Shown: one piece after another, positions 3,336-38,290 of the stretch | How positions within the stretch are numbered: position 1 is the first letter of the stretch | How the letters are laid out: the number at the start of each line of letters is the position of its first letter | Virus record (IMG/VR): IMGVR_UViG_3300008116_004701 | Coordinates: 1-58,886 of that record | Length of the DNA: 58,886 nt | Source: a virus | Lineage: Duplodnaviria; Caudoviricetes | Reading direction: 5' to 3' (one strand) | The notes under the pieces: model-generated | Databases searched by the model: none | What the model saw: only the letters and a program-made list of their open reading frames with translations | What the model was told of the DNA's origin: nothing | Program-made: the position numbers and the translations under genes

Positions 3336-3345
3336 ATCTTACATT

Positions 3346-20691: not shown

Positions 20692-23600
20692 CTACTTGTC
20701 AAAAATTGTACTACCTGAACGATAAATTCTAATAGCTTGTGCAGGTCCAGGAATTAATTCTCCTGCATGCACTGCCCATTTAGAATCTCCTTTAAAAGGA
20801 CCTGAACGAAATTCGTCATTTTCTTTATCATCATCAAAATTCTTTTTAATGTCTGATACTAATTCATAAGAATCTTGTACTAAACTAGCCATAGGAATAG
20901 CTGTTTTAGTTAATTTTTCAAATTCTAATGGGTTAGTGTAAAAACCTATATCTGTACGTAAACGAATAGTTTGGTTTAATAAAAAGTTAGTCATCATTTG
21001 ATCTTCGTCGTCATCGTCAATAGCAGCTTTTAACAATAATGCTACTCCCATAAGGCCTAACATAATATGAAGTTCCATCATATTTTTTCGCATATTAGCA
21101 GCATCAACTTCTCCAAACTTAGTATCATACCCAGGTTTCATAAACATTAGTTTTCTTGCTAATTGTTTGAGAGAGTATAATGTATCTTCAACTGCAGAAT
21201 ATTGGGTTTGCATGCCTCCTATTTTTCCAGCAATAATACCTATACCTGCACCAATAGCAGTACCGATTCCTGGTAGCATCATGGTACCAATGCCTATACC
21301 TGCAGTAGTAAGTTGGCCTAATGTATAACTACGATATCTACCTTTGCGAATGTATGGAGTATCCATACCATAGCTTAACATATCGTCTACTTTTTCGCCT
21401 TCAAATCTGTTGGCAAATCCTTCAAACATCCATGTTCTAAATTGGCTTAACGCACGTCCTGCCGCAGTTGATTTGACTTTTAGTTGATTATTATAATCAC
21501 CGTGAGTCATTTCACTAATGCGCTTAATTTTTTGAATTACTTTAGGAATATCAGCATCTGTAGTATAGCCGTCTTTTAACTTTGCATTTTGACCCATAGC
21601 TTCCCAAAGACTGACTTCATTGCCTTCAGGATCTTTAGCTTTCATGTCCATTAATACAGCAATCATAATTGGTGCTTGGTTCAAGTATTCAGAACGTTGT
21701 TGAATAGTATAAGGGCCGAAGCGTTTAAGTTTAGAAAGGCTAGACTTTTGTGAATTATCGTAAAGTTCGTTAGCTGAAGTTTGTAGAATATCCCAATCAT
21801 CCATTAAACTTCTAATCTTAGTAGCAGCTCCATTAGGATCATTAAATAAGATATCAGCAGACATATTTCTTCCAATAGAATTTAAAGTAAGCATGTATGC
21901 TTTACGAAGATTAGCACTATTAATTAATCGACCATCTGCACCTTCTATTAAGTTAGATATTAAGCCAAAACCGATGTTAGAAAAACCACTTGTTAAGTTC
22001 CATCCTAATCCTTTTAAAGTGCTAAATTTTAAAGCAGTATCTACAACACCACTAGCAGTGCGGTAGCCTCCTAATGCATCAATCTGTGCTTGTAAGAAAG
22101 TTTTTTCGTCTTCATCTTCTTCTTCAGCGAGTAGTTTTTCTAACTCTTTTTTACGAAGTTCTTCTTCTTTAGTGTAAAGCTTAGTTTTAGTAACACCTTC
22201 TACTTTACGAGTACCAGTGCCATAAAAAGTTTTAAGAAAGAAATCTAAACTATCGTTTAGATTTTTAAGGCCTTCTTTTGTTACAGGAACTTGTTTCCCA
22301 TTAATAGTTTTAGTCTGTACTTGTCCCGCACGGTTGGTTTGTAATTCTTTACGTTCTCTAAATGCCTGTTCTACTAGTTTAATCTGGGGCTCAATATTAG
22401 TTTTATGTTTATATGCTAAAATATTAAGAGCATACGCTTTAAGCACTTTACTAATATCCCAAGATTTATCCTTAGAGAGCATATCTCTAGCTTCTTCTTT
22501 AAATTTTTTACGATCTTCAGCTGTTGGGGGATTACCAGTTTGTTGTCTAAATGCAATACTTTTCTCACGTACTAGCTCATTAACTCTAGAATCAGTATCT
22601 TGAATATACTGTATCTGCACACTTTGTTCGATATCACCTGTAAGTGGGTCGATATCAGAAGTAATGCTAGTAGCAAAGTCAGTAGTAGTCTGTAGTTGTT
22701 TGAACTTATCCCATAAAGGAGTTATTCCTACCATCATCCCTTTTTCAGAAAATAGGTCTAATAGAGTTTTTTCTAGCGTAGGAAGTACTCCCACCCCCAT
22801 AATACGTTTTTTCTGTGGAGGGAGTAAGTAATTTAAGCTTTTAAGAGTATCTCTAATATAATTATGATAAGCTAGTAAATCTTCATCTGCTTCAATCTTA
22901 TCAAAGTTTTTATCGTACCATCCTGTTTCTTTGCCGTCAGCAAATCTTCTAGGTACTTGAATAATATATTCTCTAAGACCGTGTACAGCGTAGTAACTAT
23001 TATCTGGTTTAATACGTAAAGAAGGATCTTCTTGCATATCCATCATTGCGTAAGGAGAATTTTCTCTTAACCATTCTTTAAACTTAACATCTTTCTCATC
23101 TTGAGACCAATTAGCATTATTTTGAATACTGTCATAAACTACAGTACGTTCTTGTTGGAACTTTTCAATTTTATTTTTAGCACGATCGATAAATAAATTA
23201 TATCCTTTTTCGCCAAGTTGCTTTTTTAAATCAGCAATATGAGCCGCTTTTTGCTCTTCTGTGAAAGTCTTATAATTATACACAAACTCTTCAGGAACTA
23301 GTGTATCTTCAGGTAAACTATCTGGAAACAAAATACGAGGATCAAACATAATAGTGTTTGCTCTGTTCCAGTCAAAGAAATTTTTAATTAAAGCTGAATC
23401 TTTTTTAGTTTTTCCTGTATTTTTATCTCGACGATTAAATGCTTGATCAATTAACTCATTACGTTTTTTATAAAACTCATCAGAAAATCTATCTACTAAA
23501 CGACCTGTTTCTAAACCTCCTGCAGTGCGCTGTTTTAAGATATCATAGCTATTACCTGACTTTTTAAGAAACTTAGTAGTTAGCTCATCTAGTTTTTTAA

Positions 23601-24699
23601 AGATATCATTTGCTTCTTGTTGTGCTAGAATATTAGCACGTTCAACTGCACTAAATGCAGAGCTCAACATTGGATCTCCTAAACGAGAAAGATTAAGAGT
23701 TTCTATAGAAAGTTTATTAGCATCAATAAGATGCTTATAAATTTCATCTTGTGTAAGATTTCTTCCTGAATACTCTTGCACAAAAGCAGTAACCTGCTGA
23801 CGTGCTAGAGCTGTTAATCTTGCTTGTAAATCAGCTGCTTTAGCGGCACGTCCTCTAAACTCTTCACGAATAGCAGGAGTATCAAATTCATACTGATCAA
23901 GAATAATATGCTCATCTGCAGGTGTCGAAAAATCACCAGCTTTAATCCATAAATTAACAATACGCTGTGCATAAGTCAAATCATCCGCACTAACAGCAGG
24001 ATTTTTAAGCAACTCTTCTACTTCTTTTAACTGTACATCACCGAATTGTAGTACTTCTTCAAATCCTTCAATACCTTGAGAACGCACTATACGTCCTTCT
24101 GCTTCATCAATTTCTTGTTTAAGTTCTATGATATTACCCGTGATGGTTTTCTTTTTATCTGCAGTATCTGCTTTTTTAAGTAAATCTTTTTGTCGAATAA
24201 ACTCTGATTGTAGTTTTTTAATTCGAACTTTTTCAGAAGATTCTATTTGATAAGGTGCAGAAGGGATAATATCTGAACTTTCAAATAAATCTAGCTGTCT
24301 TACTTGTTCTATGATAGATGCATTTGGATATGTGTTAACTAAATTTTCTACTGCCATCGGTTCTTGACGACGTAGATCTCTTAGTTGTTGCTGAGCTTTG
24401 TTTACTGGTAAGTAATTATACTTCATTTCTATCTTGAAAGTATTACCCCAAGCACGTGTAGCCTCAAAACTATGAGATGTATTATTACGTTGGTTGTAAT
24501 TTCTTAGCTTACTTGCTAATCCTGCAGTGTTTTCTAGTGTTGGTTGGAAGCCTACAGCTTTTTTTATCTCTGTTGTAGGCTTTACATCTGGCATTTGAAA
24601 ATTATTAAAAGCAAAAGCTTTGTGGGCAAGGTCTTCTCCCACTTGTTTTACTAACATTTTCCATTCTTTACTGTTCTTATTGGGACAAGCTATAGCCAT
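20692..24699 (-). CDS. Giant ejected/virion protein, 1335 aa
   Basis: Follows the RNAP gene. N-terminal CPN motif, helical body, C-terminal glycine zipper (AGIGIGTMMLPGIGTAIGAGIGIIAG) and TM-like helix. Single Cys at residue 5. Confidence 0.8.
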   Translation of the reverse strand: MAIACPNKNSKEWKMLVKQVGEDLAHKAFAFNNFQMPDVKPTTEIKKAVGFQPTLENTAGLASKLRNYNQRNNTSHSFEATRAWGNTFKIEMKYNYLPVNKAQQQLRDLRRQEPMAVENLVNTYPNASIIEQVRQLDLFESSDIIPSAPYQIESSEKVRIKKLQSEFIRQKDLLKKADTADKKKTITGNIIELKQEIDEAEGRIVRSQGIEGFEEVLQFGDVQLKEVEELLKNPAVSADDLTYAQRIVNLWIKAGDFSTPADEHIILDQYEFDTPAIREEFRGRAAKAADLQARLTALARQQVTAFVQEYSGRNLTQDEIYKHLIDANKLSIETLNLSRLGDPMLSSAFSAVERANILAQQEANDIFKKLDELTTKFLKKSGNSYDILKQRTAGGLETGRLVDRFSDEFYKKRNELIDQAFNRRDKNTGKTKKDSALIKNFFDWNRANTIMFDPRILFPDSLPEDTLVPEEFVYNYKTFTEEQKAAHIADLKKQLGEKGYNLFIDRAKNKIEKFQQERTVVYDSIQNNANWSQDEKDVKFKEWLRENSPYAMMDMQEDPSLRIKPDNSYYAVHGLREYIIQVPRRFADGKETGWYDKNFDKIEADEDLLAYHNYIRDTLKSLNYLLPPQKKRIMGVGVLPTLEKTLLDLFSEKGMMVGITPLWDKFKQLQTTTDFATSITSDIDPLTGDIEQSVQIQYIQDTDSRVNELVREKSIAFRQQTGNPPTAEDRKKFKEEARDMLSKDKSWDISKVLKAYALNILAYKHKTNIEPQIKLVEQAFRERKELQTNRAGQVQTKTINGKQVPVTKEGLKNLNDSLDFFLKTFYGTGTRKVEGVTKTKLYTKEEELRKKELEKLLAEEEDEDEKTFLQAQIDALGGYRTASGVVDTALKFSTLKGLGWNLTSGFSNIGFGLISNLIEGADGRLINSANLRKAYMLTLNSIGRNMSADILFNDPNGAATKIRSLMDDWDILQTSANELYDNSQKSSLSKLKRFGPYTIQQRSEYLNQAPIMIAVLMDMKAKDPEGNEVSLWEAMGQNAKLKDGYTTDADIPKVIQKIKRISEMTHGDYNNQLKVKSTAAGRALSQFRTWMFEGFANRFEGEKVDDMLSYGMDTPYIRKGRYRSYTLGQLTTAGIGIGTMMLPGIGTAIGAGIGIIAGKIGGMQTQYSAVEDTLYSLKQLARKLMFMKPGYDTKFGEVDAANMRKNMMELHIMLGLMGVALLLKAAIDDDDEDQMMTNFLLNQTIRLRTDIGFYTNPLEFEKLTKTAIPMASLVQDSYELVSDIKKNFDDDKENDEFRSGPFKGDSKWAVHAGELIPGPAQAIRIYRSGSTIFDK

Positions 24700-24705
24700 T
24701 ATAAA

Positions 24706-27700
24706 TTATTTACCACAAATTAACAAATATTTTTCATACATATCTTCATCCATTTCTCTTGTTGCAAGGAATTCATCAGAGAAAGCACGATTAAATGCTT
24801 CCCAATCATCAGGTGAAGGTGTGAATGTATCTTTTTCTTGGAAACCAGAAGGTAGAGACTTTTTCTTAACAGCTGGAGATATTTTACTTGTATCTAGTTT
24901 ATTAGTAAAAGGCTGAGCAGGTGTTTGAATACTTCTAAGCTCGTCTCTTACTTCCATAAGTAATTTTGGAAACTCTTTGCCCCATTTAGTTTTATCTTGA
25001 GTATGTGTAAGAGTAGCGTTACCTGTAGCAAGTAGTTTAGCTAGAGCATCTGGATTTTGTTCAAAAGATTCTTTTAGTAATTCTTTCATAATTCTAGAAG
25101 AATTTTTATCCCATTCTTTTGTATCTAATCCTGTAATTGTTCTGCCTAATGCTTTAGCTTTTGCTCCTGTAACATTCATTAATTCTAGTACAATAGGTAA
25201 TCTATCTCCTATACCCATAGATGAATATCTAAATTTAGCAGCTTGAAATGCTCCTTCTACTGTATTAAAAGTACCATGGATAGTCACGACACTTTTAAAA
25301 GGCCTAACAGCAAAATTACTTAACTCAGCATTTTCTCCTGTACCTGCATAAATATTAATAGTTGTGTTAGATAGTATACTAGGTTCTGTAGTAGTATCAA
25401 ATCCTGTTAGAGTTGCTTTTATTCCTGGAGCAGGCGCAAAAAATACATCGTCTTGTAGTGATTTTCTTTGTGTAGAATCGATCAAATCAATAGTTTCTTT
25501 AACTGCAGAAGCTAAAGCTGTACCTGCTTTAATATCTATACCTAAAGAATTTAAGAGTTGTAACAACAAATCTTTGAGTTTATCCATCATAGACTTGTCT
25601 TCTACTTTTACTTTATTTAACCATGCCTGGAATCCTTGGTCAGTAAGCGCCATAGTAACAAACTCTGTAAGTTTGATAGCACCGTAGTATTTACTTAAAC
25701 CTTTATCTGTAGTAAAAGGAGTTCTTGTAGCAGGGTCTGCTTTTGCCCAAGTATTAAATTTTTCTATAAATTCATTTAACTCATTACGATTTCCTTGAGT
25801 TTCTAAATAATTAATATAACTTAACTGTAAAGCTTTTAGGTTATCAATAATCTTTACTTGTTCAGCAGTAAGTTTATCCATTCTACCTGCCTGATAATCT
25901 CTAATCGCCTCTCCTGTAAAAGTATGAATTAGTTCATGTGCTACAGTATTAGCAAGATCGTTAACTGTTTTATGATTTTGATGATTTAAATTTATAAACA
26001 AAGTCTTAGTTGCATATTCATATCTGCCTCGAACACCAGCTTCTTTTACAAACTCAAATTTAAATCCTTCTGGAAATATTAAACTATGAAGTTTTTCTAA
26101 AAGTAATTTGTTAGTAGTACTAACAGTAGGATCGGATAGTAGTCTATCAACTAGGTCATCAAATGCTCGTTTACCTGACATGTTTGTATCTACACCTAGT
26201 TGATTAGGTGGAGTTTGTTGTACAGGATTGTTTACAATATTAGGATCAAATGTCTTAGTAGGTTTAACAAGAACACCTTGGATTGTGGTACCTGGAGCAA
26301 CTACGCTTGGTTTGTTGTCTTTAATCTTAGGTTGATAAACAGGAACAACTACAGCATTCTGTGAGTTATACTGTGTAAAACCATAAGTACCTTGTAGTAC
26401 AGGAATACGGTTGTATTTACGAGTAGATTCATCAAACTCGTATAATGCGTACTTAGATTTATTATTCTTATTATCATCTCTGATAGTTAAGAAATGCGTC
26501 TGTGTCTCAGTCATATCTCCAGATACAGGATCTACAACACTTACAAAATTTCTTTCTAATGCTTCTTTATCTAACTCAAATGATTCTGGAACTGTACTTA
26601 CTTTACCTTTTAAGTCGCCAAGAGATATTGTTTTAGCAAGGTTTGGATTATTTTGAATGTATTGACGAGTAAAACTACTAGGCATGCTATAAATAGGGTT
26701 GCCTAAATCGTCAACTATTCCACCAAAAGTACGTTCAAAATCAAAAGGAATTCCTTGCAGATAGTTGCCAAACCCTAAAGTTTTTAAGTATCCAATAGGA
26801 ATATAGCGCATGTATTGTTTAGAACCTTGTATACCGCCTTCTAAGAAGGCCGCTGTAATAAGATCTTGTGCAAGAAGTCTAGTAGTATAATCAATACCGT
26901 TAAAGTTTCCTAGAGGAACGTTTTTAGAAAGCAAATATGCAAAGCCTGCATAAATGCTGCGCTCGTCAAAATTAGCAGCATTACTAGACTCAAAGTTAAT
27001 TCTTGAAACATCTCCATTACTGTTAAAGTTAAACGTAAGTTTATTTAAGAATTGATTGTTTTGATACCAAGGTTGAGTAGATAACTCTTGTAGTATAGTA
27101 GCAAGACTTTTGTTTTCACCTTCTTTATCGATAAATAATCTTGCTCTTTCTTCATCTGGATTGCCTAAAAATAAACTACTTCCTTCATTAGAATAAAAGT
27201 AAGATTTAATATCTTGGAAAATTTCTGTTTGTACATCGGATAACTTAGTGCTGCTAGCAATTACTTTATCTCCACTAGGAATATGTTTAAGAACTTCTTT
27301 AAATATTGTTTGAAATCCGTCTGTATTATACGGAAAATATGGAGCGTAAATATTATTAGCAAACATAGTTCCGTATTTAGAAGCATATCCACTAATAGTT
27401 GTTGGTACAAACTCTTTATTTTCTATTGTACCTAGTAGACTATTTGCATTAAATACATTAGATAAAGGAAGGTTTTCAATCTGAGTTACTTTAGTATTAG
27501 TTTCTAACAAAGATTTGGGAATGCCTTTAGATGCAGTATTAATAGCTGATTGTATTTTCTTAATTTCTTCACCTATTCCATCAAGTTTTAAAAACTTATT
27601 TAAAATCATTAACTGTCCTATATTATAGTCAGTTGATTTAGTAGGATTAAATTTAGTCTCTTTTAGGTTTTCTAAAAGTTGTTCTCCAGACATGTCACCT

Positions 27701-29700
27701 AATTTTTCATAGGCTAACATTTGACTTTCAGAAGCTTCTGTTAATTTATTTTCAGGGTCGTATTTTTTACGAAGCTCCTGCATCAATTCTGCTTGGAAGT
27801 TAGCATTATATTTACTAGTAGTAGATCGATTAGCTTTTATTCGATCTAAGTACTCCCAAATGATGTCTTGAGTAATAAGCCCTGCTATATCTGTTTCTTC
27901 AAACCCAAACATTACCATAGCACGTATTGCGCCAAAAGTATCTGAGTTAATATTTAGTTTATCAAGAATCTGCTCTTTTTCGTTATCTACTGCAGTAGAC
28001 TGTAGTGCTCGAATAATTGCTGATTTAAATTTAAGAGACTCTTTTTCTTCTTTAGTAAGCTCACGTTTTTCTGCTTTAGCTCTATTAATAAGAGCTTGAG
28101 ATTTAAGAGTATATGGATTAGACATATCTCCTTTAGAAACAAACTCTCCAAATGTTGCTACAGGCATATTAGCTTCTGCTAACTCTTGTGCAGTAGGAAT
28201 ACGTGGATTCATTGGTGTACCAAATAATTCTACATACGCTTCGTCATTAAGATTTTGATAAACTAAATCTTTGCCTTGTGCATTAGCATTAAAAGTAGAA
28301 TCAAGAGAAAATGATCCTACACCATCTTTACCTGCTGTTGCATTAATGTATTTAGTACGTTGATAAATATCAGAAAGAATAGTAACAGGTGTAGGGTTTA
28401 CACCCTTCTCGGAACGTATTTTATTTACTTCTGCAGCTAGACCTGTAAATTCTCCAGAACCATCAAGTGCAATAATACTAGCAATCACTTCAGGGTTAGT
28501 ACTAGTCATTACATCTAAATGGATATCTAAGATCTTATTCTGTTTAGCTGCTACATAAGAACGATTTAAGATCGATAAGCGATCTATTAATGTTTCGATT
28601 TGACCAGGCTCTAGAAATTTTTTATCCAAACTTCTTGTGATAATTTCATTAGCTTGCGACGCCAAAGTAGAATCAATATCATCTTTTTCTTCATTACTGT
28701 CTATAGTATTCTTAATGTAATCTCTTAGTATTTTATTTTCTTCTTTTGAAAGCTTTAATCTTTCTTGTATATCGTTTAAAGTTTCTTTAGCAATCTTAAT
28801 TTGCGCTTCTATTTTTTTAGGATCAGATAGAAAGTTAGTATATAGCTTGCCATTTTGATAAAAATGATTGTACATGTATGTGTACAATTTATCAACGTCA
28901 AAGTCGGACCCCATTTGTTTAGTAAAATCTCTAGGCGCTAAGACTAAATCCCCCATTGCTTCTGGTAAAAATCCTACTATTTCTACAGCAGCCATAGAGT
29001 TACGGCTTTGAGTAGGAATACGGAATCCAAATAGTTGAAGTAGTTTTTCAGGAACTTTAGTAGTGTCTAATAAACCATCTTTTGTTAAAAATTCCTCTAT
29101 GTTCAAGATTTCTCCACGCTCATTGCGAAACTTAAATGGAATCATAATTTGAGCAGGTAACATTTTACCTGTTGCAGGATCTACACGCAAAGGTTGTAAC
29201 CCTTTAGTAGCATCAAATTTATTTGTGAATACGATATCAGAATTCTTTAAATCTCCTGCTGCAGCATCACCTTCTTTAATTTTAATCCCTTCTTCAGAGC
29301 CGAGTACATAAGAATTACCCGTAAACTTTTGTTTAACTACTTTATTACTAACGAGTGACGTAAGTAAACTTTCAAATTTATCTGCATAAGGAGATGCCCA
29401 CAAAGGAATTTTAAAGTTTTGTTTGTCTTCTGTTAATTCTAAAGCAGACAACATGTTAGGCGCATATCCTTGGCGAGTTTTGATTTCTTGAGCAAGAATC
29501 TCAGCAAGTTTAACTGCGGGAATTGTAGTTCTTTCTATGATTTTTTTGTCAGCAACTTTAACTTTAGAGCTATCTTTTTTAAATCCTGGAAGACTCAGCT
29601 TACCGTTAGCAACTAAAGTATCTAAAAGGCCTTCATTTAAAAGTGCCTTAAATTCATTTTCAGAGACCCAACGACCCCCTACAAAGTACTGACAAGCCAT
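24706..29700 (-). CDS. Virion RNA polymerase catalytic (beta'-like) half fused to zincin and NADAR domains, 1664 aa
   Basis: FRIPTQ..NS and GSDFDVDKL (DxDxD at 28891-28905, compare phi14:2 gp66 DFDID), AVDNEK. Zincin: AHELIH...EFV. NADAR: LSNF...TVEGAFQAAK...AKALGR...W...M...F.QNP...LLATG. Confidence 0.9.
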   Translation of the reverse strand: MACQYFVGGRWVSENEFKALLNEGLLDTLVANGKLSLPGFKKDSSKVKVADKKIIERTTIPAVKLAEILAQEIKTRQGYAPNMLSALELTEDKQNFKIPLWASPYADKFESLLTSLVSNKVVKQKFTGNSYVLGSEEGIKIKEGDAAAGDLKNSDIVFTNKFDATKGLQPLRVDPATGKMLPAQIMIPFKFRNERGEILNIEEFLTKDGLLDTTKVPEKLLQLFGFRIPTQSRNSMAAVEIVGFLPEAMGDLVLAPRDFTKQMGSDFDVDKLYTYMYNHFYQNGKLYTNFLSDPKKIEAQIKIAKETLNDIQERLKLSKEENKILRDYIKNTIDSNEEKDDIDSTLASQANEIITRSLDKKFLEPGQIETLIDRLSILNRSYVAAKQNKILDIHLDVMTSTNPEVIASIIALDGSGEFTGLAAEVNKIRSEKGVNPTPVTILSDIYQRTKYINATAGKDGVGSFSLDSTFNANAQGKDLVYQNLNDEAYVELFGTPMNPRIPTAQELAEANMPVATFGEFVSKGDMSNPYTLKSQALINRAKAEKRELTKEEKESLKFKSAIIRALQSTAVDNEKEQILDKLNINSDTFGAIRAMVMFGFEETDIAGLITQDIIWEYLDRIKANRSTTSKYNANFQAELMQELRKKYDPENKLTEASESQMLAYEKLGDMSGEQLLENLKETKFNPTKSTDYNIGQLMILNKFLKLDGIGEEIKKIQSAINTASKGIPKSLLETNTKVTQIENLPLSNVFNANSLLGTIENKEFVPTTISGYASKYGTMFANNIYAPYFPYNTDGFQTIFKEVLKHIPSGDKVIASSTKLSDVQTEIFQDIKSYFYSNEGSSLFLGNPDEERARLFIDKEGENKSLATILQELSTQPWYQNNQFLNKLTFNFNSNGDVSRINFESSNAANFDERSIYAGFAYLLSKNVPLGNFNGIDYTTRLLAQDLITAAFLEGGIQGSKQYMRYIPIGYLKTLGFGNYLQGIPFDFERTFGGIVDDLGNPIYSMPSSFTRQYIQNNPNLAKTISLGDLKGKVSTVPESFELDKEALERNFVSVVDPVSGDMTETQTHFLTIRDDNKNNKSKYALYEFDESTRKYNRIPVLQGTYGFTQYNSQNAVVVPVYQPKIKDNKPSVVAPGTTIQGVLVKPTKTFDPNIVNNPVQQTPPNQLGVDTNMSGKRAFDDLVDRLLSDPTVSTTNKLLLEKLHSLIFPEGFKFEFVKEAGVRGRYEYATKTLFINLNHQNHKTVNDLANTVAHELIHTFTGEAIRDYQAGRMDKLTAEQVKIIDNLKALQLSYINYLETQGNRNELNEFIEKFNTWAKADPATRTPFTTDKGLSKYYGAIKLTEFVTMALTDQGFQAWLNKVKVEDKSMMDKLKDLLLQLLNSLGIDIKAGTALASAVKETIDLIDSTQRKSLQDDVFFAPAPGIKATLTGFDTTTEPSILSNTTINIYAGTGENAELSNFAVRPFKSVVTIHGTFNTVEGAFQAAKFRYSSMGIGDRLPIVLELMNVTGAKAKALGRTITGLDTKEWDKNSSRIMKELLKESFEQNPDALAKLLATGNATLTHTQDKTKWGKEFPKLLMEVRDELRSIQTPAQPFTNKLDTSKISPAVKKKSLPSGFQEKDTFTPSPDDWEAFNRAFSDEFLATREMDEDMYEKYLLICGK

Positions 29701-29705
29701 AGCAA

Positions 29706-30182
29706 TTATTTATTAAGTAGTTCTTGATCGAACAACAACATGTTATCAGTAAGCGCTAAACGAGCAAGTAAATCCATGTACTCACCTACTGCTCCTACTT
29801 GATGAGTAGTAAAGTCTTGTAGTAACAATCTTACTTTCAGAGAAAGATCCATTTTGCAAGCAGATTCTTCGTATGCCATAAGCAAATCACGCTCCATTTC
29901 GTATGCCATCTCTAAAGCACCTTTAACATCTGTGCAATCACACTTCACAGCATCTAAAGCATCAGTAGAAAGTTCTCCGCCTAAATCGTTGCAGAACTTT
30001 TCGATTTTATTATAATGATCTCGTTCTCCTAAAGACTCTTCAGTAAATAATTTTTCAGCGCCAAAGTAACCATTAGTCTTCATACGATTTGCTAAATGCA
30101 AATACGTATGAGAAGCAGTAAGCTCTAGACGGCCAAATTTATTGAGTTCTTTTTGTTCAATATCGGTAAGTAGCTTTTCCAT
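29706..30182 (-). CDS. Ferritin-like protein
   Basis: ELTASHTY, GY.G...F..ES..ERDH..K, ALE.E, Q..A and FDQ.L have ferritin spacing; 158 aa. Confidence 0.88.
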   Translation of the reverse strand: MEKLLTDIEQKELNKFGRLELTASHTYLHLANRMKTNGYFGAEKLFTEESLGERDHYNKIEKFCNDLGGELSTDALDAVKCDCTDVKGALEMAYEMERDLLMAYEESACKMDLSLKVRLLLQDFTTHQVGAVGEYMDLLARLALTDNMLLFDQELLNK

Positions 30183-33100
30183 TAATCACAATTTTTAAAC
30201 TGGTCATTCTCGTCGAAGAAGTAATTAATCTTAGAGTCTACTAAGCCTTCAACGATTTTATCAAAGTTTTGATTTATAAAGTTAATTCTTTCTAGGTTAT
30301 CAGCACCTATTTCATCTTCAAATTCTTGTAAAGCAGTCTGTTTCTTAATCGGCGATTTGATTTTAGAGATAGCATCCATCTTTTCTGCTATCTTCTCAAC
30401 CATTTCTGGATCGGCTTCTACTTCATTAAATTGTTCTAGAACATTGTCTTCAGTAATTTCTTCGTAAAGACCTAAACGTTTAGCAAGTTTTTTCTGATTG
30501 TACTCAAATAAATCTTGATAAGCACTGTTATATTCTTTAACTAGGTCTTTACCTGTTTTGTCTTTAGTTACTTGAACATCTAACAAGTCTACAAATAGTA
30601 ATGCTCGTTCTTGGGTACCTACGTTGATTTCAGCTTTTTCTCGTTTATACGGTACATCTTGCTGAATTCTAAAGTTGCTACGATCTAGTACTAAAGTGTT
30701 TTCAGGTTTAACTTCAAAGTTATCTACAACATTGCCGTTGTCATCAAAAGTCTTAATTTCACTAGCAACAGCACCTACTTTATTAGCAGTACCAAAAGAT
30801 GCTCTAATAAATTTAGGTTGTCCTCCTGCAGTGATATCTTTAGATACACTTTCTTCGTACTTTTCTAATCCTTGTCGGATTTTGTCTATTTGTAAGCCTG
30901 CAGTAAACTGTGGAATAAGTGGAAAACTCGAAGATTTAATGTATACACGGCGGTCTGCATTGTCTTCTACACTTGTCATGTTACCCACATACACAGGTTT
31001 CATAGGCTGCATTACTAGTCCTAGTTCTTCATATGTAAGTTTTGTGTTGTTATTTATAACACCTGCAGATTGCTGAGTTAGCTTCTTGTTAATAGTATTG
31101 TATTGGAAATCAGTAAGACGTCCTAATTGGTTTAATACATATAAGTGTTCTTTCCAAGTAGTGTATTCCTGAGCATCTGATCCTTCTATCTCTCCATAAC
31201 CTTTTTTGCCGTCACTGTAATCTTTGTTAATCTTTTCAAAAAATTCTTTTTGTACAGAATCTTTAAGGTTATTACTTTTAAGTTTTTTATCTTGTAAGAA
31301 TACTTGTAAGTATTTATTGTTAGCACTATCTGCCAACTCTAATCCTGGTGCAATATCTCCAGCAAGACGTTTACCCATATTGATAAAAGTTGCTGATAGA
31401 TTTTCTAAAGTAGTGTTACCATCTTTAAACTTAGCATATAATGCAGGGTCTCCAGTAAACAACTTCATCATTTCGCTGTTAGCAATAAGAGAGTTAAATA
31501 CATAATCTGTAGCAGCAAAACGTACTCTAGCAGCTTCTCCTACACCTTTAGCAATGTTGGACATGTAAGCAGAGTCTAAGAAAGTATACTTGTCAGTTAC
31601 ACGTCCTTTAGCGTCTTTTATAGTTTGTCCAATTCCAAGATTGTTCCAGTCTTCTAGCTTTTTATCTACAAGAGTGTTAAGAGTTTCTTGTAAGTAGTCG
31701 TATACAGCTTGTTTAACTTCTGGGTTAACTACAGCATCATTTCCTGAACGAACAAGGTCTCTGTAGTTTTGCATAGTGCCGTTTACTTCTACTATTAGAT
31801 CGTTTAATGCTGGGAAGAAATAAAAATATTCAGGTTCGTATCCTGCAATATCTGACTTGCCTTCTAACACTGCGGCACGGATTCTGTTAATCTCTGGCTG
31901 TACTGTTGCTTGGTAAAGACTTTCTAAGTTAGCATCAGTAACACCTCCTGGCGTCACAACTACTTGTTGGGCTAAAGCATTGACTACTAACATCGTAGTC
32001 TTATCCGACATTGTAGGATAGAAATAAGAAACTTTTCTGTAGGTCTTACCGTCAGCAACTTGTTTGCTTCCGTTAAAGAACATACCTAGTTTTACTAACT
32101 CATGTTCGTCGACAGTAAGTTTGTTTAGCTTACGGTCTTCTTGTGACTTAGTATACTGACGTTTAAGTGCTTCAAGAGATAGATAGTCTATACCTAAAGA
32201 ACTTCTCATTAAATCTCCTGTTTCTCCATCTTGAGTAAGCGCTGCCAACCATAAGCTATCTCTTGTAAATGAGATTTTTTTAAGCTTGTCAATTAAGTCT
32301 TGATTAATAAACTTTTTATTATCACTGTCGTAACTAGTAAGATCGCGCATGCGATTTACTAGATAATTATTGTTACCGTAAGAATAAATAGTCTTAGTAC
32401 CTGCACGGAAAGAATTACTAAAATTACTAGCAGTATTAATTGCTTCTAATTTAGATAATGCTTTGATTGCAGAATCTTTTAACAGTGACTTATCAGCTAT
32501 TTTATCGGGGTTATTAGCAATAGCTTTAAGTTCTTCTTTTAGTACTTTTACTAACCCAGAACTAGTATTAAAGAGTGCTTCCCAAGATTTACGGCCAGAA
32601 TTGTTGTATTTACCAGCACGTAAATCTTTATAAGTAGCATCAGACAGTACAATACCAAAATTACCTAACCATTTAGCTAATTCTTCATTTGTTACGTCTT
32701 TAGGATTTTTTTCCCATTCAGAAGCAATAGTTACTATATCATCTACTACTTCCTTATTGTATATATAATCACCTGCTTCGTTAACTAAAATAAGATTATT
32801 ACCTGGTTTTAAAAGATTGCTACCCCAATAATCTCTGAGGCGCTCTTCCATAGCACTAGAATTACTTGACCAACGTTGTAGAGAATAATTACCATATTGA
32901 TCTTTATTCCACATAATAAACTTCATACCGATATGATGTTTAGCCATATCTGATACAAACTCATTTTTAATTCTTTCTGGAGAATTTTCTATGTTGTCAA
33001 TAACAGTTTGTAACCATGGGAATGCTTCAGTATATAATCCTAAAGTATCTAACATTATATCTAAGTCGGCAGGTTTATTTGCCAATAACATATGGAGAGT

Positions 33101-36100
33101 GTCGTAAACTTGATCAAAAGGAATGATTTCTGGGAAACCTAATTCATTAGTCATTACGGCACCGTTAGCATCACGTGCTTCAACAAATGCAAAGAACTTA
33201 CGTAAATCGGCACTTGCTGTAGCTTTTGAGTTAATAGTAAACGCCCAGTCGTCTGAGTAAATTGTCTTTTCTAGACCTACTGTTTCTTCACTTTCATCGA
33301 GGTCCATACTTTCGTCTACTCGTCCTGTAGAAAGTACACTCATGTATTGGTTTACTAAACTTTGTAGTTTAGGAAATTGATCGACAATTTTATCTAGTAC
33401 TGCAGCTTTTTTAGGAAAACCATTGTTTCTATAAAAATCTGCTAGTTGTTTTAAAGATTCTTTATGTTCTTCAAATACAGGAAGAGTTTCTAAAGTTTTC
33501 TTGCCACCAACTTCTTTAAGAGCTAAGGCTCTTTTCATGATGTCTGCAGCAATATAAGATTGCAAAGATTCTTGAGTACGTGGGCTAACGCCTTCTAATA
33601 GTAGTTCCCTAGCTTCAGCAACAATAGTTTCTACTTGATCGGGCTCAATAGTAGCCAAAGCATCATCAAAAGTATCTTCTGAAATATCAGTGCTGTCTTT
33701 AGTATTACCATCTACTTTAATAGTTAATCCATTAGGTAAAGTAATACTGCCTGTGTTTTGTGTTGAACGGGCTTTATATAATTCTAATGCTTTGTTAAAA
33801 CTGTCTACAGCATTTTGCTTAGACTCAAAGCCGTTAGCTACAGCATCTTCGTCTGTCTTTAAAAAAGTACCGTCTCCTAAATTTTGAATATATCCTTCTA
33901 AAGTTTTAACAATAGACTCAGGAGCTACTGACTCTAACATCTGAGAGATAATCTGCTCGGCATTTTCAGTAACAGTATCTGCAACAGGTGGTGTAGTAGT
34001 AGCTGTAGGTTGTGTAGCAACAGGCTGTTCTAAAGCAGCTAGTTCTGCATCATATTTAGCATTTATATCTTGTAACTCTTTTTCTAATTCTTTAATTGAT
34101 TTAGTCTTACCTGTAAAGTCTTGTGCATAATATTTTTTTAAAGCATTCTTCCTTTTTCTTTCTATATTAGCTTTTTGAGCTTCTATATCAGTAGATGGTG
34201 CAGCAGGTTGACTTGCTGGCGGAGCACTTGGCGGTGTAGCTGTAGAAGCAACAGGCGCAGGCTTAGGCAATTGATTAGCATTAAGCTTTTGTGTCTGTAG
34301 TTTACCAGCAAACTTAGTATCAAAAAGAATAGTTGGCTGAATAGTATAAACCCATTTAGGCTTATCTTCTGTGCCAATGTTAGCAGAGATTACGTTACTC
34401 TTAGTAGAACGTTTAATTTGATCTAAGTAACTTAGAGTCTCTGTTTCTCCTTCTCTATTTAAAACTATTACAGTAGGAGTGTTTTCTTGTAGAGCTTCAA
34501 TTCTTACGTTACTTACCATTTGTGCTAACACATTAGTAAGCTTTGTAAGATTTTCTGCATTTAATCTTTTACCAAAATTTGATCCTTCAAAGTTTCTAGA
34601 GATTACTACGCCATATCGTTGGACTTCACTACCATCTTGTTGGACGTATTTGTTCATCATAATGCCTGGACGGCCGAATTCTATACCTGTTTTAGTAATA
34701 GACAGTAACGGCGTAGTAGAAGGTAGAGCACTATTAGTACCGCCTTGCATTAATAAATTCTCAATAGATTGCCCTTTAGCAGGAAAAATATAAGTAAATT
34801 GATTAACATAGTTAGCTAACCCTACTGAGTCTGTGATATCGTGACCTGTAGCATCAGCAATAGCTTTAACTACAGGATTGTTAATATCTCCAGTAAGATG
34901 TGCTTCAACCGCTAATACAATAGAGTTAACAACCTCAGCTGCTAACTTAGTACGCTCTAAAGGAATAGCTAAAAATTTATCAGGACCTACTTTAACTATA
35001 GCATAAGGACGACCTGCTTGAGTATCTTCTTTATTTATGATTACTCCTTTTTTGCCTAGTAGATTTTCTTTAGAGTTTGCAAATTTATATTCACCGTCTT
35101 TACCTACAGCAATAATTAACTTATCATCAGGCATTGCTTCTGTAAGAGGTAAAGACTTTCCGTCTGCAGTTTTAAACAAACGACCAAAACTTTTATAATC
35201 TACTTTAGATTTAACAGTTCCTTTTTCTACAATAGATTTACGGATTAAGTAATTTTTTTGTCGGTCTTCAGCAATTGCTTCTTGTGTATTGTCTAAGTTT
35301 TCCGCCTTGTACCAAGAGTTATCGTGTACGTAAAATACAGTTTCTCCTGACTCAAGAGTAACTTTAATAGGAACTTCAGCAATATACTCTGGCAATTGGT
35401 TTAATGGAATGTTACGATTTTCAGCAATCTGACGTAACTCTGCTAAACGTAATGGCCATGCTATTGTCTCACGAGTATTACTTTTAGGATCGTATTTCTC
35501 TCCTTCATACTCAGTATCTATAGTCATAATTAGTTTAGTACCTGGCTGCAATGCATCAGGGTCTAGTACTAATTGATTATCTTCGAGTTGATCAGTAAAC
35601 TCTTCACGATTTACAGTAAGTATTTCTGCAGTTTGATTAAAATCTCTTGATAAAAATGCTGCACGATTATGTCCTTCTGCAGCTCTATCGTAGCTATAAA
35701 TTAAATTACCATTGACGTCTTGGCCTATTAAATAAGTCTTGTCGTTTTGATTAAGAGATTCTGCAGCATTAGTAGTGCGCTTAGAAGCTTGGTCTGCTTC
35801 ATTTTTTGGGTCAGGTAATCCATCAGGAAGCTCTGTTTCAGTGTCTTTGTTGTTCTGATCGTTAGCATCTTTTGTTTCTTGTTCTTCAGTTTCATTACCT
35901 TGTTGAAATTGATCAAGTGGATTCTTAGGAGGAGCAGTAGGATTCTTTAAGCGCTCTAAATGATCAGAATACTCCATGCGAAGTTGATCTTTTTTATTTT
36001 GACTTATTTCTGCATCATCTATTGCTTTTTGGATTTCATCATAGTTTGCATCTGTAGAAGCATTAATTTTAGAACGCAACTGTTGCATTGTAAGTTCGAC

Positions 36101-38290
36101 TTGCTTTCTTTTTGCAGCTGCCGCATTACTTTGTTTGATAGTATCAATCTTTGCTTCTGCAAGTTGTCTAAACTGCTCATCGTCAGTTTGATCCATTAAT
36201 TTTTCTACATCAGGAATAGTTTGTGCGTTAACTAATTCAGCATTAAGAGTTTTAAGTAATTCTTTTTTAGCTTGTTTAGCTTCATATTCTTGTTGATATT
36301 TTCTACTAGTAAGTGTAGTAAACTCTTCTTGATTGCTTTCTATTAATTTATTTAATAGCTCTTCCTGCCCTTGATAACCTTCATACTGCTCGTATTCAGG
36401 AGTATTTTTGACTTCTTTTAAAAACTTGTTGTAAGTTTTTTGGTTCTCTTTAGTATCTCCTTGATTATTTTCAATATCGCTAAGTACATAGTTAAGAGGA
36501 ACTTCTTTCTTTTTTGGAGTACGTTTTACCTCAACACCTTCTACTTTATCAATCTGATCGTACTCTTCCGTAAACTTATACTTCTGAGCAATGTCACGCA
36601 CTTTTTGTGCGTAAGCAACTTGAGCATTCTTAGTAAGAGTACCTGTTGTATTTGCTTGACGGTCTAATCTTTGTTTGGCTGCACGGTTATAAAAAATCTC
36701 ATCGGCGTTTTTATACTCTTCAAAGTTATTATAGACTTCTTCTAATTCTTTTAAATTTTCTAAAGCTTTTTTAGCATTAGCTAAATATTCAGGACCTACT
36801 TCTGCAGGATCCTTAGCCATTTCTTCTTTAAGTTGCTCTTCTAAGATATCTGTAGTACCAGATTGAAAAGCTTTTAATGCAGTGTTTTCAAAAAGTTTTT
36901 CTCGAATCTCTTGCACTTTAGCATCATCTCCACGATTTGCAGCATCAAACAATTCTTGTTCAAATTGCATGCGCTCGTTGATATTCATTAAAGCATCAGT
37001 AACTTTAACTCCGTTTTGTTTAAGTTCTTCAATTACTTTTTGCTGTCTCTGATATTGCTGACGAAGATTTTCGTTATAACTAATTTTGTTACCATTTTCA
37101 TCAAGAGTAGCACCTGGGCCATATTTACTAGACCTTAAAGCTGAAGTAATAGCAGTTTGTCCTGCTCCACCTATAGCTCCTAAAAAAGCAGCTTCTAAGC
37201 CTTCCATAGTACTAATAGCTTCAAAACCTTTTTTCATGTAATCCTTCTCACCACGTCCTTTAGCTTCTCCAGCTTTTTGCGCGACAAGGTTAACAGTTTC
37301 TTCTAAAGCTTCTTGCCCTGCTTCTAATCCTACTTTACCTAAAGTAGCTCCTAATGTAGGAGCAATAAGAAGGTTACGGGTAGATTTCATTGGGGTCAAG
37401 AATGCTTTTGCAGATGTAAGATTTAGAAGAATATTAGCACGGTTAATATTCATTGTAGTTGCAGCAGCTCTTGCAGCATCTTCTTTTGCTTCTGTGTCAC
37501 TCTTACCTTTAGCTCTAGAATTTTGGTAAGTATTTTTATAAACCTGGGTAGCTTCAATAACAGCTTCTGCTTGGTTCATCATAGTAGCTGCACCAACTTG
37601 GCCTACTACACCTCCTACAGTTTTAGCATTTTTTGCCCCCATTACAGTCGCTGCTAAACCACGAGCTAATGCTTTACCTCCTAATGATGCTAACTTACCT
37701 GCTCCCATACCTGTAGCAGCAAATGCAGTAATAGATTCTACAAGACCTTCGCCTCGTGTCATCCACCATGCAAAGTCTCCAAGTTGCATTGAACCACTAG
37801 GATTTTCTTCATAAATAGGTAAAGCTTCACTAGATTTTTCTTTAATACTATCTGCCCAATTAACAATAGAATTAGTTGCTGCTTCTTCTGCACTAAAATA
37901 CCCAGGAAGATCTAACATAGCTGCAGCTCCTCCAATAATTTGAGGCACTATATTTACAGCAAGTCTACCTATTGCATTTCCTGCTTGTTCCCAATTAGAT
38001 TGGTTTTCTGCTCTTAAAGTATTAAGAAAATCTGTATCAAACTGTCCTCCACGTAATGTATTACGATCTATGTAGTCTTCATATGCATCATAAAAATCTG
38101 GAGAATCAATGTTGTACATTGCATCTACTCCACTGTACCCTGCTATCCTGCCTCCAGCTTCTTCTTGTGCTTTTTCGTAATCAGGAAGAACTCCTGATTT
38201 AATAGCTTCATTTTTACTTTGTTGTATTAAACTATCAAGTTTTGAAGTATCTGGAAGTTTATTAATAGGAGGCGTTGTATTTTTAGGCAT
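30182..38290 (-). CDS. Giant virion protein carrying the beta-like half of the virion RNAP, 2702 aa
   Basis: C-terminal motifs PTMSDKT, LFTGDPALY, KRLAGDIAPG, SDAQEY, MKPVY, YIKSSSFPL, IQQDVP, GTQ. N-terminal Gly/Ala hydrophobic helices. Single Cys at the penultimate residue. Confidence 0.85.
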   Translation of the reverse strand: MPKNTTPPINKLPDTSKLDSLIQQSKNEAIKSGVLPDYEKAQEEAGGRIAGYSGVDAMYNIDSPDFYDAYEDYIDRNTLRGGQFDTDFLNTLRAENQSNWEQAGNAIGRLAVNIVPQIIGGAAAMLDLPGYFSAEEAATNSIVNWADSIKEKSSEALPIYEENPSGSMQLGDFAWWMTRGEGLVESITAFAATGMGAGKLASLGGKALARGLAATVMGAKNAKTVGGVVGQVGAATMMNQAEAVIEATQVYKNTYQNSRAKGKSDTEAKEDAARAAATTMNINRANILLNLTSAKAFLTPMKSTRNLLIAPTLGATLGKVGLEAGQEALEETVNLVAQKAGEAKGRGEKDYMKKGFEAISTMEGLEAAFLGAIGGAGQTAITSALRSSKYGPGATLDENGNKISYNENLRQQYQRQQKVIEELKQNGVKVTDALMNINERMQFEQELFDAANRGDDAKVQEIREKLFENTALKAFQSGTTDILEEQLKEEMAKDPAEVGPEYLANAKKALENLKELEEVYNNFEEYKNADEIFYNRAAKQRLDRQANTTGTLTKNAQVAYAQKVRDIAQKYKFTEEYDQIDKVEGVEVKRTPKKKEVPLNYVLSDIENNQGDTKENQKTYNKFLKEVKNTPEYEQYEGYQGQEELLNKLIESNQEEFTTLTSRKYQQEYEAKQAKKELLKTLNAELVNAQTIPDVEKLMDQTDDEQFRQLAEAKIDTIKQSNAAAAKRKQVELTMQQLRSKINASTDANYDEIQKAIDDAEISQNKKDQLRMEYSDHLERLKNPTAPPKNPLDQFQQGNETEEQETKDANDQNNKDTETELPDGLPDPKNEADQASKRTTNAAESLNQNDKTYLIGQDVNGNLIYSYDRAAEGHNRAAFLSRDFNQTAEILTVNREEFTDQLEDNQLVLDPDALQPGTKLIMTIDTEYEGEKYDPKSNTRETIAWPLRLAELRQIAENRNIPLNQLPEYIAEVPIKVTLESGETVFYVHDNSWYKAENLDNTQEAIAEDRQKNYLIRKSIVEKGTVKSKVDYKSFGRLFKTADGKSLPLTEAMPDDKLIIAVGKDGEYKFANSKENLLGKKGVIINKEDTQAGRPYAIVKVGPDKFLAIPLERTKLAAEVVNSIVLAVEAHLTGDINNPVVKAIADATGHDITDSVGLANYVNQFTYIFPAKGQSIENLLMQGGTNSALPSTTPLLSITKTGIEFGRPGIMMNKYVQQDGSEVQRYGVVISRNFEGSNFGKRLNAENLTKLTNVLAQMVSNVRIEALQENTPTVIVLNREGETETLSYLDQIKRSTKSNVISANIGTEDKPKWVYTIQPTILFDTKFAGKLQTQKLNANQLPKPAPVASTATPPSAPPASQPAAPSTDIEAQKANIERKRKNALKKYYAQDFTGKTKSIKELEKELQDINAKYDAELAALEQPVATQPTATTTPPVADTVTENAEQIISQMLESVAPESIVKTLEGYIQNLGDGTFLKTDEDAVANGFESKQNAVDSFNKALELYKARSTQNTGSITLPNGLTIKVDGNTKDSTDISEDTFDDALATIEPDQVETIVAEARELLLEGVSPRTQESLQSYIAADIMKRALALKEVGGKKTLETLPVFEEHKESLKQLADFYRNNGFPKKAAVLDKIVDQFPKLQSLVNQYMSVLSTGRVDESMDLDESEETVGLEKTIYSDDWAFTINSKATASADLRKFFAFVEARDANGAVMTNELGFPEIIPFDQVYDTLHMLLANKPADLDIMLDTLGLYTEAFPWLQTVIDNIENSPERIKNEFVSDMAKHHIGMKFIMWNKDQYGNYSLQRWSSNSSAMEERLRDYWGSNLLKPGNNLILVNEAGDYIYNKEVVDDIVTIASEWEKNPKDVTNEELAKWLGNFGIVLSDATYKDLRAGKYNNSGRKSWEALFNTSSGLVKVLKEELKAIANNPDKIADKSLLKDSAIKALSKLEAINTASNFSNSFRAGTKTIYSYGNNNYLVNRMRDLTSYDSDNKKFINQDLIDKLKKISFTRDSLWLAALTQDGETGDLMRSSLGIDYLSLEALKRQYTKSQEDRKLNKLTVDEHELVKLGMFFNGSKQVADGKTYRKVSYFYPTMSDKTTMLVVNALAQQVVVTPGGVTDANLESLYQATVQPEINRIRAAVLEGKSDIAGYEPEYFYFFPALNDLIVEVNGTMQNYRDLVRSGNDAVVNPEVKQAVYDYLQETLNTLVDKKLEDWNNLGIGQTIKDAKGRVTDKYTFLDSAYMSNIAKGVGEAARVRFAATDYVFNSLIANSEMMKLFTGDPALYAKFKDGNTTLENLSATFINMGKRLAGDIAPGLELADSANNKYLQVFLQDKKLKSNNLKDSVQKEFFEKINKDYSDGKKGYGEIEGSDAQEYTTWKEHLYVLNQLGRLTDFQYNTINKKLTQQSAGVINNNTKLTYEELGLVMQPMKPVYVGNMTSVEDNADRRVYIKSSSFPLIPQFTAGLQIDKIRQGLEKYEESVSKDITAGGQPKFIRASFGTANKVGAVASEIKTFDDNGNVVDNFEVKPENTLVLDRSNFRIQQDVPYKREKAEINVGTQERALLFVDLLDVQVTKDKTGKDLVKEYNSAYQDLFEYNQKKLAKRLGLYEEITEDNVLEQFNEVEADPEMVEKIAEKMDAISKIKSPIKKQTALQEFEDEIGADNLERINFINQNFDKIVEGLVDSKINYFFDENDQFKNCD

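Follow-up and report, generated by a model that had tools for sequence, protein, structure and literature searches.

The window analysed here is the whole 58,886-nucleotide (nt) stretch of IMG/VR record IMGVR_UViG_3300008116_004701. It comes from an uncultured, freshwater, crAss-like phage and carries a cargo-type gene block on the minus strand. Within this block, a virion RNA polymerase (RNAP) of the type of gp66 of Cellulophaga phage phi14:2 is encoded in two pieces, named here gene A and gene B, with a ferritin gene in the break between them. The features at the break are listed below, where L031 stands for an IMG/VR relative with an unsplit open reading frame (ORF) of 4375 amino acids (aa).

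30182..38290, minus strand: gene A, 2702 aa; begins with a gp67-like part and continues as the N-terminal half of a gp66-type virion RNAP
30650..31693, minus strand: A residues 2200-2547; matches gp66 799-1104, pre-Connector, with the first (beta-like) double-psi beta-barrel
30467..30649, minus strand: A residues 2548-2608; first part of the Connector, common to unsplit relatives (blastp to L031)
30185..30466, minus strand: insert part 1; 94-aa C-terminal tail of A, ending in NCD, not in unsplit relatives
30188..30190, minus strand: codon of Cys2701, the penultimate residue of A
29706..30182, minus strand: insert part 2; ferritin gene, 158 aa, presumed ferroxidase-site residues conserved
29542..29700, minus strand: insert part 3; 53-aa N-terminal head of B, starting with MAC, not in unsplit relatives
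29692..29694, minus strand: codon of Cys3 of B
24706..29700, minus strand: gene B, 1664 aa; the Connector's remainder and the DxDxD barrel, followed by a weak HExxH match (zincin/SprT-like) and a NADAR domain
28891..28905, minus strand: DFDVD catalytic motif, B 266-270, aligned with DFDID of gp66

The ORFs and the raw sequence agree with the gene order and spacing given in a preliminary description of this DNA. The TAA of gene A and the ATG of the ferritin gene overlap by 1 nt (TAATG at 30180-30184), and 5 nt (29701-29705) separate the ferritin stop from the ATG of gene B. No terminator-like site was found between A, ferritin and B, and the promoter-like matches there were two, under the shuffle mean of 6.2. 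The gene geometry suggests that A, ferritin and B are co-transcribed and that their translation is tightly coupled.

The split inside the polymerase core

Passages of the gp66 preprint (10.1101/2020.03.07.982082) place the Connector, which joins both barrels, at residues 1095-1238 and the DFDID motif at 1361-1365. In BLASTP comparisons with phi14:2 gp66, A 2256-2571 aligned with gp66 856-1127 (4e-19) and B 23-462 with gp66 1145-1548 (3e-17), with DFDVD over DFDID. A single DxDxD motif is present in B (DFDVD, 266-270) and none in A, which bears out the earlier proposal that a beta-like part ends A and that the DxDxD half starts B. The same division was found with phrog_16227, a profile of 4401 positions, equal in length to the unsplit 4401-aa gp33 of Flavobacterium phage Fpv1: its positions 2749-2991 matched A 2364-2609, and positions 3040-4310 matched B 94-1386. 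The DFDxD motif was invariant in an alignment of relatives of the B barrel region, and a profile of this region matched 6vr4_A only (E 2.4e-20).

Models of both halves were obtained with AlphaFold2 (AF2). In a Foldseek search, the model of A 2200-2702 had 6vr4_A as its sole match at or below 1e-3 (E 1.5e-11); the structural comparison gave Z 19.2, with the root-mean-square deviation (rmsd) at 10.2 over 283 aligned residues, with model positions 1-348 on chain positions 799-1104. The model of B 1-520 was placed on the following part of the same chain (model 129-413 on chain 1104-1501), with Z 12.6 and rmsd 3.2 over 177 aligned residues. Weak fold matches were also obtained with 7s01_d of phage AR9 (Z 4.6 and 4.4) and with large subunits of cellular RNAPs (Z about 4). 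The resemblance of B helices 291-380 to chain 9k3a_A of cyanophage A4 (Z 4.6, rmsd 4.0, 85 aligned) was considered too weak and was left unused. Searches of the PDB sequences with A and with B by phmmer did not return 6VR4. As HMMER did not connect A to 6VR4, the link between A and gp66 rests on BLASTP and fold comparison.

The cut lies mid-Connector: before it the match to gp66 reaches about 1165, and after it the match resumes at about 1172. The earlier proposal would have failed if one half held both barrels; neither does, and the split within the RNAP core, between the barrels, is confirmed. Since a stop, a ferritin gene and a new start lie between the parts that match gp66, the polymerase is a split variant and not a canonical member of the gp66 type.

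The insert measured against unsplit relatives

When the two genes were aligned with the unsplit ORF of L031, A 2207-2608 corresponded to L031 2343-2724 and B 54-290 to L031 2724-2964. Both alignments meet at L031 residue 2724, so the window carries an insert of about 925 nt (29542..30466), made up of the 94-aa tail of A with its stop, the ferritin gene, and the start of B with its 53-aa head. The extra residues had been estimated at about 90 and 60 on the two sides of the break, close to these measured lengths, and the cysteines said to end them are Cys2701 of 2702 and Cys3. The insert also nearly coincides with the interval 29500-30480 marked in the preliminary description. Four further unsplit relatives (L029, L035, L040 and L042) are likewise unbroken at this point, to within 0-14 residues; in another, L045, the aligned stretches share about 28 residues.

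Ten split loci were compared with L031 in this way. All ten have tails of 68-94 residues that are absent from L031, and six have heads of 45-59 residues, while in the other four the BLAST alignment runs further. This apparent homology of the head inside L031 was treated as an alignment artefact, because a hidden Markov model (HMM) of the head finds no internal copy (best internal i-E 0.77). Invariant positions are N67, F68, I71, E86, K91 and C93 in the tail, and M1, C3, Y5, E14, K18, L21, G24, L25 and L29 in the head. In the AF2 models the tail is helical and the head is a beta-hairpin plus a helix.

The ORF list and the raw sequence show no ORF in the cassette except that of the ferritin. No nuclease, flanking repeats or composition shift that could explain mobility were found in or around the insert; the repeats around it were short, in two copies and at chance level, and there was no shift in GC content.

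Occurrence of the arrangement in other assemblies

Sequencing runs were searched for words sampled from 29300-30700. At least half of the words were present in 18 runs, and 20 runs from 17 studies hold any of them, 7 of which are possibly the source; two RNA-type runs contain just 0.08-0.17 of the words. Contigs from run X14 (28900-30820) and run X10 (29049-30963) each cross both junctions, and run X8 gave two contigs with one junction each. In the contigs of four non-source runs there was no indel within 29500-30480. As independent contigs from these four runs cover the junctions, misassembly, which the preliminary description had asked to be checked with reads, does not account for the split. 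Eleven other IMG/VR contigs have the same order of A tail, ferritin and B head, with flanks 53-99% identical and all three ORFs open. When the 13.6-kb locus was compared by megablast with 50,697 phage records, no match appeared.

A survey of relatives not biased for ferritin was made with the best 80 of 494 confirmed loci. Three of the 80 have a gene that starts 267-279 aa before DFDxD, and all three carry a ferritin gene directly upstream; 59 are unsplit (1144-3444 aa before DFDxD) and have no ferritin. The remainder are 15 loci with an open 5' end, one with a ferritin gene 2511 aa upstream, one unclassified and an odd one, L104. In this last locus (L104:4362-13240), the gp66-type gene is broken into three stop-to-stop frames of 1378, 269 and 1231 codons. 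Neither a ferritin gene nor Cys-tipped ends are present there, and in L101 and L105, siblings that are almost identical to it, the gene is unsplit. The L104 break probably reflects an error in sequencing, a pseudogene or a different insert. The appendages noticed before are absent from the unsplit relatives.

The block at a second position

Beyond what was described earlier, the tail, the ferritin gene and the head make up one insert that is also found at another position in a different clade. In this second, distant clade, with 25-34% identity in the barrel region, 7 contigs carry a ferritin 72-77% identical to that of the window. There, the ferritin gene is followed by a giant gene of at least 3067 aa, whose first 37-68 residues are 40-51% identical to the head of B. 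Both barrels lie unsplit in this giant gene, and the block is about 2000-2500 residues upstream of DFDxD. The gene upstream of the ferritin encodes 1290-1666 aa and has the same tail motif in 3 of the 5 cases in view. When 195 ORFs of at least 300 aa were searched with HMMs built from the head and from the final portion of the tail, strong matches appeared only at termini that flank a ferritin (13/13 for each).

Two candidate correspondences were dropped. The junction of the second clade is not the gp67|gp66 junction of phi14:2, as the offsets place the former several hundred residues further upstream, and a likeness seen by eye between A near residue 1400 and the ends of the second-clade upstream proteins was not retained.

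Concerning the trees, the backbone tree separates the two clades at 100 (a starred branch), with the reservation that it was built by a quick method and has long branches among the outliers. In the clade of the window, ten split loci fall in one group (99, starred), but the split, ferritin-bearing L032 is the sister of the unsplit L031 (100, starred). This means either that the same Connector site was hit twice or that the insert was cleanly lost. The ferritin tree mixes both arrangements, and its starred branches force at least two changes; the split-type locus L005 is there sister to L009, L011 and L014 of the second clade (97/96), and monophyly of the split-type ferritins had p 0.021 in the approximately unbiased (AU) test. 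Because the tail-ferritin-head block is found at a second position in another clade, and because the ferritin tree conflicts with the backbone tree, the block looks exchangeable between positions. The likely route would be recombination between co-infecting phages.

The ferritin

The identification of the gene in the break as a ferritin stands: it scores 46.9 bits with Pfam PF00210 (cut-off 24.5), and its residues 12-154 align with solved 24-mer ferritins (7y74_A, 9.2e-07). The NCBIfam and PHROG searches gave no match. The family comprises 158 clusters at E up to 1e-5. In an alignment of 119 members, conservation is 99-100% at E20, Y27, E53, H56, E97 and Q128, which line up with motifs of 7y74. 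We take these to be the ferroxidase-centre residues, and the protein is probably an active ferroxidase. The four cysteines of the ferritin are not conserved among the same members, and a Cys-x-Cys pair considered as a redox site was rejected (18-40% conserved). The motif MLLFD at residues 148-152 (about 29727..29741 of the window) is nearly invariant, or invariant, in the 119 members; it may belong to helix E, or serve as a signal for packaging or interaction.

Terminal cysteines of the cargo-type proteins

The genes around the break, and the features of B distal to its barrel, are as follows.

47571..51878, minus strand: muzzle protein (crassvirus), PF25731, 1.3e-137
44641..47571, minus strand: 976-aa protein, between the muzzle protein and cargo protein 1
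40909..44619, minus strand: cargo protein 1, PF25725
between cargo protein 1 and gene A, minus strand: 859-aa gene
24973..25335, minus strand: NADAR domain, B 1456-1576 (PF08719 6.2e-13; YbiA 2b3w 3e-07)
24715..24717, minus strand: codon of Cys1662 of B, third from the end, which faces Cys5 of the next protein
20692..24699, minus strand: next giant protein, 1335 aa, starting with MAIAC, single Cys at residue 5

The muzzle protein (PF25731) and cargo protein 1 (PF25725), upstream of A, place the polymerase genes in the crassvirus cargo block. This position suggests that the polymerase would be packaged in the virion and act at early promoters.

Cysteine is nearly absent from the six cargo-type proteins, which contain 5 Cys in 8772 residues, all at most 5 residues from an end, compared to 0.75% Cys in the replication-side ORFs. 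The single Cys of A is at 2701 of 2702, the two of B are at 3 and 1662 of 1664, and that of the next protein is at 5; among the upstream neighbours, the two cargo proteins have none and the 976-aa protein has one, its last residue. Facing pairs are formed by Cys2701 and Cys3 at the A-B junction, and by Cys1662 and Cys5 at the junction of B with the next protein.

The terminal cysteines follow a general rule at crassvirus giant cargo junctions, a result that goes beyond the earlier observation at the break. In a census of 89 loci, a Cys was sought among the final three residues on the upstream side and among residues 2-6 on the downstream side. Junctions between ORFs of at least 1000 aa (n=50) had it on both sides in 36 cases, downstream only in 12, upstream only in 1 and on neither side in 1, while for smaller ORFs such a Cys was seen in 7-9 of 124. 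A Cys in residues 2-6 was present in 20/20 gp66-type starts and in 1/39 chain-first starts, and fused giant proteins have no Cys at the fused positions. The rule holds in phi14:2 and Fpv1; in phi14:2, gp67 ends in TIC, gp66 starts with MAC and ends in ECK, and gp65 starts with MSC. The gp66 preprint (10.1101/2020.03.07.982082) mentions neither cysteine nor disulfide. For crassvirus virions, passages of another report (PMC10172136) describe disulfides in the tail, in seven mentions that concern tail and portal-vertex proteins, and the word cysteine is absent from its main text.

The possible docking of the tail with the head was examined by folding the 94-aa tail against a 60-aa head, with an alignment of 13 rows for each. 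The score was 0.58, against 0.02 for the best of 3 controls, a verdict of weak support for the docking appendages proposed in the preliminary description. The mark used was reached by 58/80 solved complexes and 2/110 mismatched pairs; scores of at most 0.60 were given by 7 of those 80 complexes and by both passing mismatches. Contacts agreed between runs to at least 92%, and the partner had a predicted local distance difference test score (pLDDT) of at least 69. These models give weak support to the docking of the tail with the head.

Some observations on neighbouring proteins are recorded here in their own right. The polymerase half B carries the NADAR domain as a C-terminal fusion and also shows the weak SprT/zincin-like HExxH match at residues 1221-1262; an ADP-ribose-removing domain, if injected, could have an anti-defence activity. 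The 976-aa protein contains, at residues 718-889, an ADP-ribosyltransferase exoenzyme-like domain (PF03496, 1.3e-06). In crAss001 (L106, record 46119-64723), the gp47 gene is on the strand opposite to gp48-gp50, and gp48, a small protein annotated as 'shock protein C', is encoded directly downstream of gp49, before the convergent gp47. From the position of gp48, the ferritin phages are not alone in having a small passenger in this block.

Interpretation of the split

The insert and its boundaries, the many independent assemblies, the second position and the conservation of all three parts were observed directly; the reassembly and the disulfide we infer. The reading preferred, with a probability of about 0.6, is that of a split gp66-type RNAP whose halves reassemble through their native interfaces and an insert-borne clasp closed by a Cys2701-Cys3 disulfide. 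An approximately 925-nt block would have been inserted in frame within the Connector, between the two double-psi beta-barrels. The halves would rejoin as one enzyme via the native barrel and Connector interfaces, aided by the tail and the head acting as a clasp, and the disulfide between Cys2701 of A and Cys3 of B would form in the virion. With a second link between Cys1662 and Cys5, A, B and the next protein would make a head-to-tail chain of ejected giant proteins. Conservation suggests that the two-chain enzyme is active.

Several points weigh against this reading. Both AF2 models of the halves are of middling confidence (mean pLDDT 66.7 for A 2200-2702 and 66.5 for B 1-520), and a profile of A 2200-2702 with 14 relatives gave 0 matches at E up to 0.01. 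The docking score lies in a band where predictions fail more often than they hold, unless the pairing was already likely, and pLDDT is below 50 in the last 25 residues of the tail and in head-linker residues 50-58. The pairing rule is imperfect, as the 976-aa protein ends in Cys and its downstream neighbour has none. The upstream genes of L009 and L014 have a different tail, which ends in TQGCK and is still Cys-ended; since these loci combine ferritin and head with another tail, tail and head are separately recombinable. Finally, 14 of the ferritin loci were found with the ferritin as query, so the sampling is biased.

There is also a broader version of the reassembly reading, and we would bet slightly against it. 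The block would be a portable cut-and-relink kit, which enters in frame at different sites and whose Cys-tipped tail and head dock, become linked by a disulfide and restore the thread. Such a block would exemplify a wider system, where crassvirus cargo proteins, Cys-purged apart from these ends, are chained head to tail and leave the capsid as one string. If this were true, gene fusion and fission in the cargo block would be functionally equivalent.

The alternative that survives best, still an unlikely one, accepts the split as real and takes the tail, the head and the cysteines as neutral leftovers, with the halves rejoining only through the native barrel interface, as in beta/beta'. The weak docking score favours this alternative, as does the placement of the two barrels on separate chains in cellular RNAPs, according to passages of the gp66 preprint (10.1101/2020.03.07.982082). 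However, invariant positions, both cysteines included, are kept in the tail and the head of loci whose flanks are 25-65% identical, and the terminal-Cys rule is strong in giant proteins that are otherwise free of Cys.

Less probable again is a working role of the ferritin, which could bind the tail and the head, aid the disulfide through iron or oxygen chemistry, or be co-packaged. A head-bearing gene lies directly downstream of the ferritin in 18/18 ferritin contigs and in the window, no strong match of tail or head was found away from a ferritin among the 195 ORFs, the presumed ferroxidase residues and the C-terminal MLLFD are invariant, and the tight gene spacing is kept in relatives. On the other hand, this linkage in the sample may reflect common descent of one block only, most crAss-like phages have Cys junctions without a ferritin, and the ferritin cysteines are unconserved. 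The ferritin is most likely carried along with the block.

It is very improbable that an intron, an intein, translational bypass or readthrough rejoins the halves, so that the mature enzyme would be one chain. Introns and inteins are plentiful in crAss-like phages, as passages of Yutin 2021 (PMC7886860) indicate, but Rfam gave no family match in 28500-31500, neither A nor B matched an intein/Hint family of Pfam at E up to 0.1 (a search aimed at inteins was not made), and the model of the tail is helical. Moreover, the frame of the ferritin differs from those of both neighbours, the two spacings vary in relatives, one from -7 to +11 nt and the other between 5 and about 17 nt, and the tail and the head are conserved as protein.

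An assembly artefact or a decaying pseudogene is hardly credible, for, even if broken RNAP ORFs do exist in metagenome contigs (L104), four runs belonging to other studies gave independent contigs, half of the words or more occur in 18 runs, and the three ORFs are open in 11 other contigs at 53-99% identity.

If the reassembly of the halves is true, the locus is a natural experiment in which a single-chain two-barrel RNAP became a two-subunit enzyme by a recent, datable insertion, with the unsplit sister L031 at hand, and it offers a handle on the origin of the cellular beta/beta' arrangement and on the needs of a split active site. The Cys rule, if it reflects real links, suggests a way in which crassviruses, phages of great abundance in gut and aquatic settings, arrange more than 5000 protein residues and eject them through a narrow tail. 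A small, self-contained clasp that re-tethers split proteins could, if the reading holds, also be a tool for protein engineering.

Comparison with known systems

The closest enzyme is gp66 of phi14:2 (6VR4). It is like the polymerase of the window in its homologous barrels and Connector, in the DFDxD motif, in its position in the cargo block, where it follows the muzzle and cargo genes on their downstream side, and in its Cys-tipped termini. It is unlike it in being one chain of 2180 aa, whereas the polymerase of the window is cut near the equivalent of gp66 1165-1172, with a ferritin gene in the cut. Besides, the N-half is here joined with a gp67-like protein, and zincin-like and NADAR parts are attached to the C-half. 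Passages of Yutin 2021 (PMC7886860) describe variable protein boundaries in the transcription block of crAss-like phages, and these passages do not mention this RNAP split. Literature searches restricted to main texts, on ferritin in crAss-like phages or Crassvirales and on a split RNAP in crAss-like phages, brought up no account of the split.

The multisubunit RNAPs with beta and beta' subunits, and the non-virion RNAPs of phages AR9 and phiKZ, which are split, also have the two barrels on separate chains. However, their splits are ancient and lie elsewhere, while that of the window is a recent insertion with single-chain near relatives.

Fractured genes that carry split inteins (Dassa et al. 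2009, PMC2677866) likewise consist of two pieces separated by a further gene, in metagenomic phage-like DNA. They differ in the way of rejoining, since in A and B no intein domain was detected with Pfam, and the proposed rejoining is by docking and a disulfide, with no peptide bond.

The closest precedent for the linkage is in cyanophage A4, for which passages (Hou et al. 2025, PMC12002296) describe by cryo-electron microscopy a C-terminal helix of gp27 docked in gp26, with a Cys1715-Cys5 disulfide. The likeness is in the near-terminal Cys of consecutive ejection proteins, at positions like those of Cys2701/Cys3 and Cys1662/Cys5. A4, however, belongs to another phage group and no sequence homology is shown; its bond was seen, while that proposed here is a matter of interpretation, and it does not rejoin a split enzyme.

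The closest mechanism is the NrdA-a/mobE/NrdA-b arrangement of Aeromonas phage Aeh1, whose insertion-derived tails are treated, in passages of the report, as essential for activity and as proposed interaction domains (Crona et al. 2010, PMC3045599). In both systems, an essential enzyme gene is cut in its catalytic core by an inserted gene, and the insertion provides new tails. The difference is that mobE is a homing endonuclease, which explains its own mobility, whereas the inserted gene is here a ferritin, and that the tails of the split polymerase are Cys-tipped and recur at another site in other phages.

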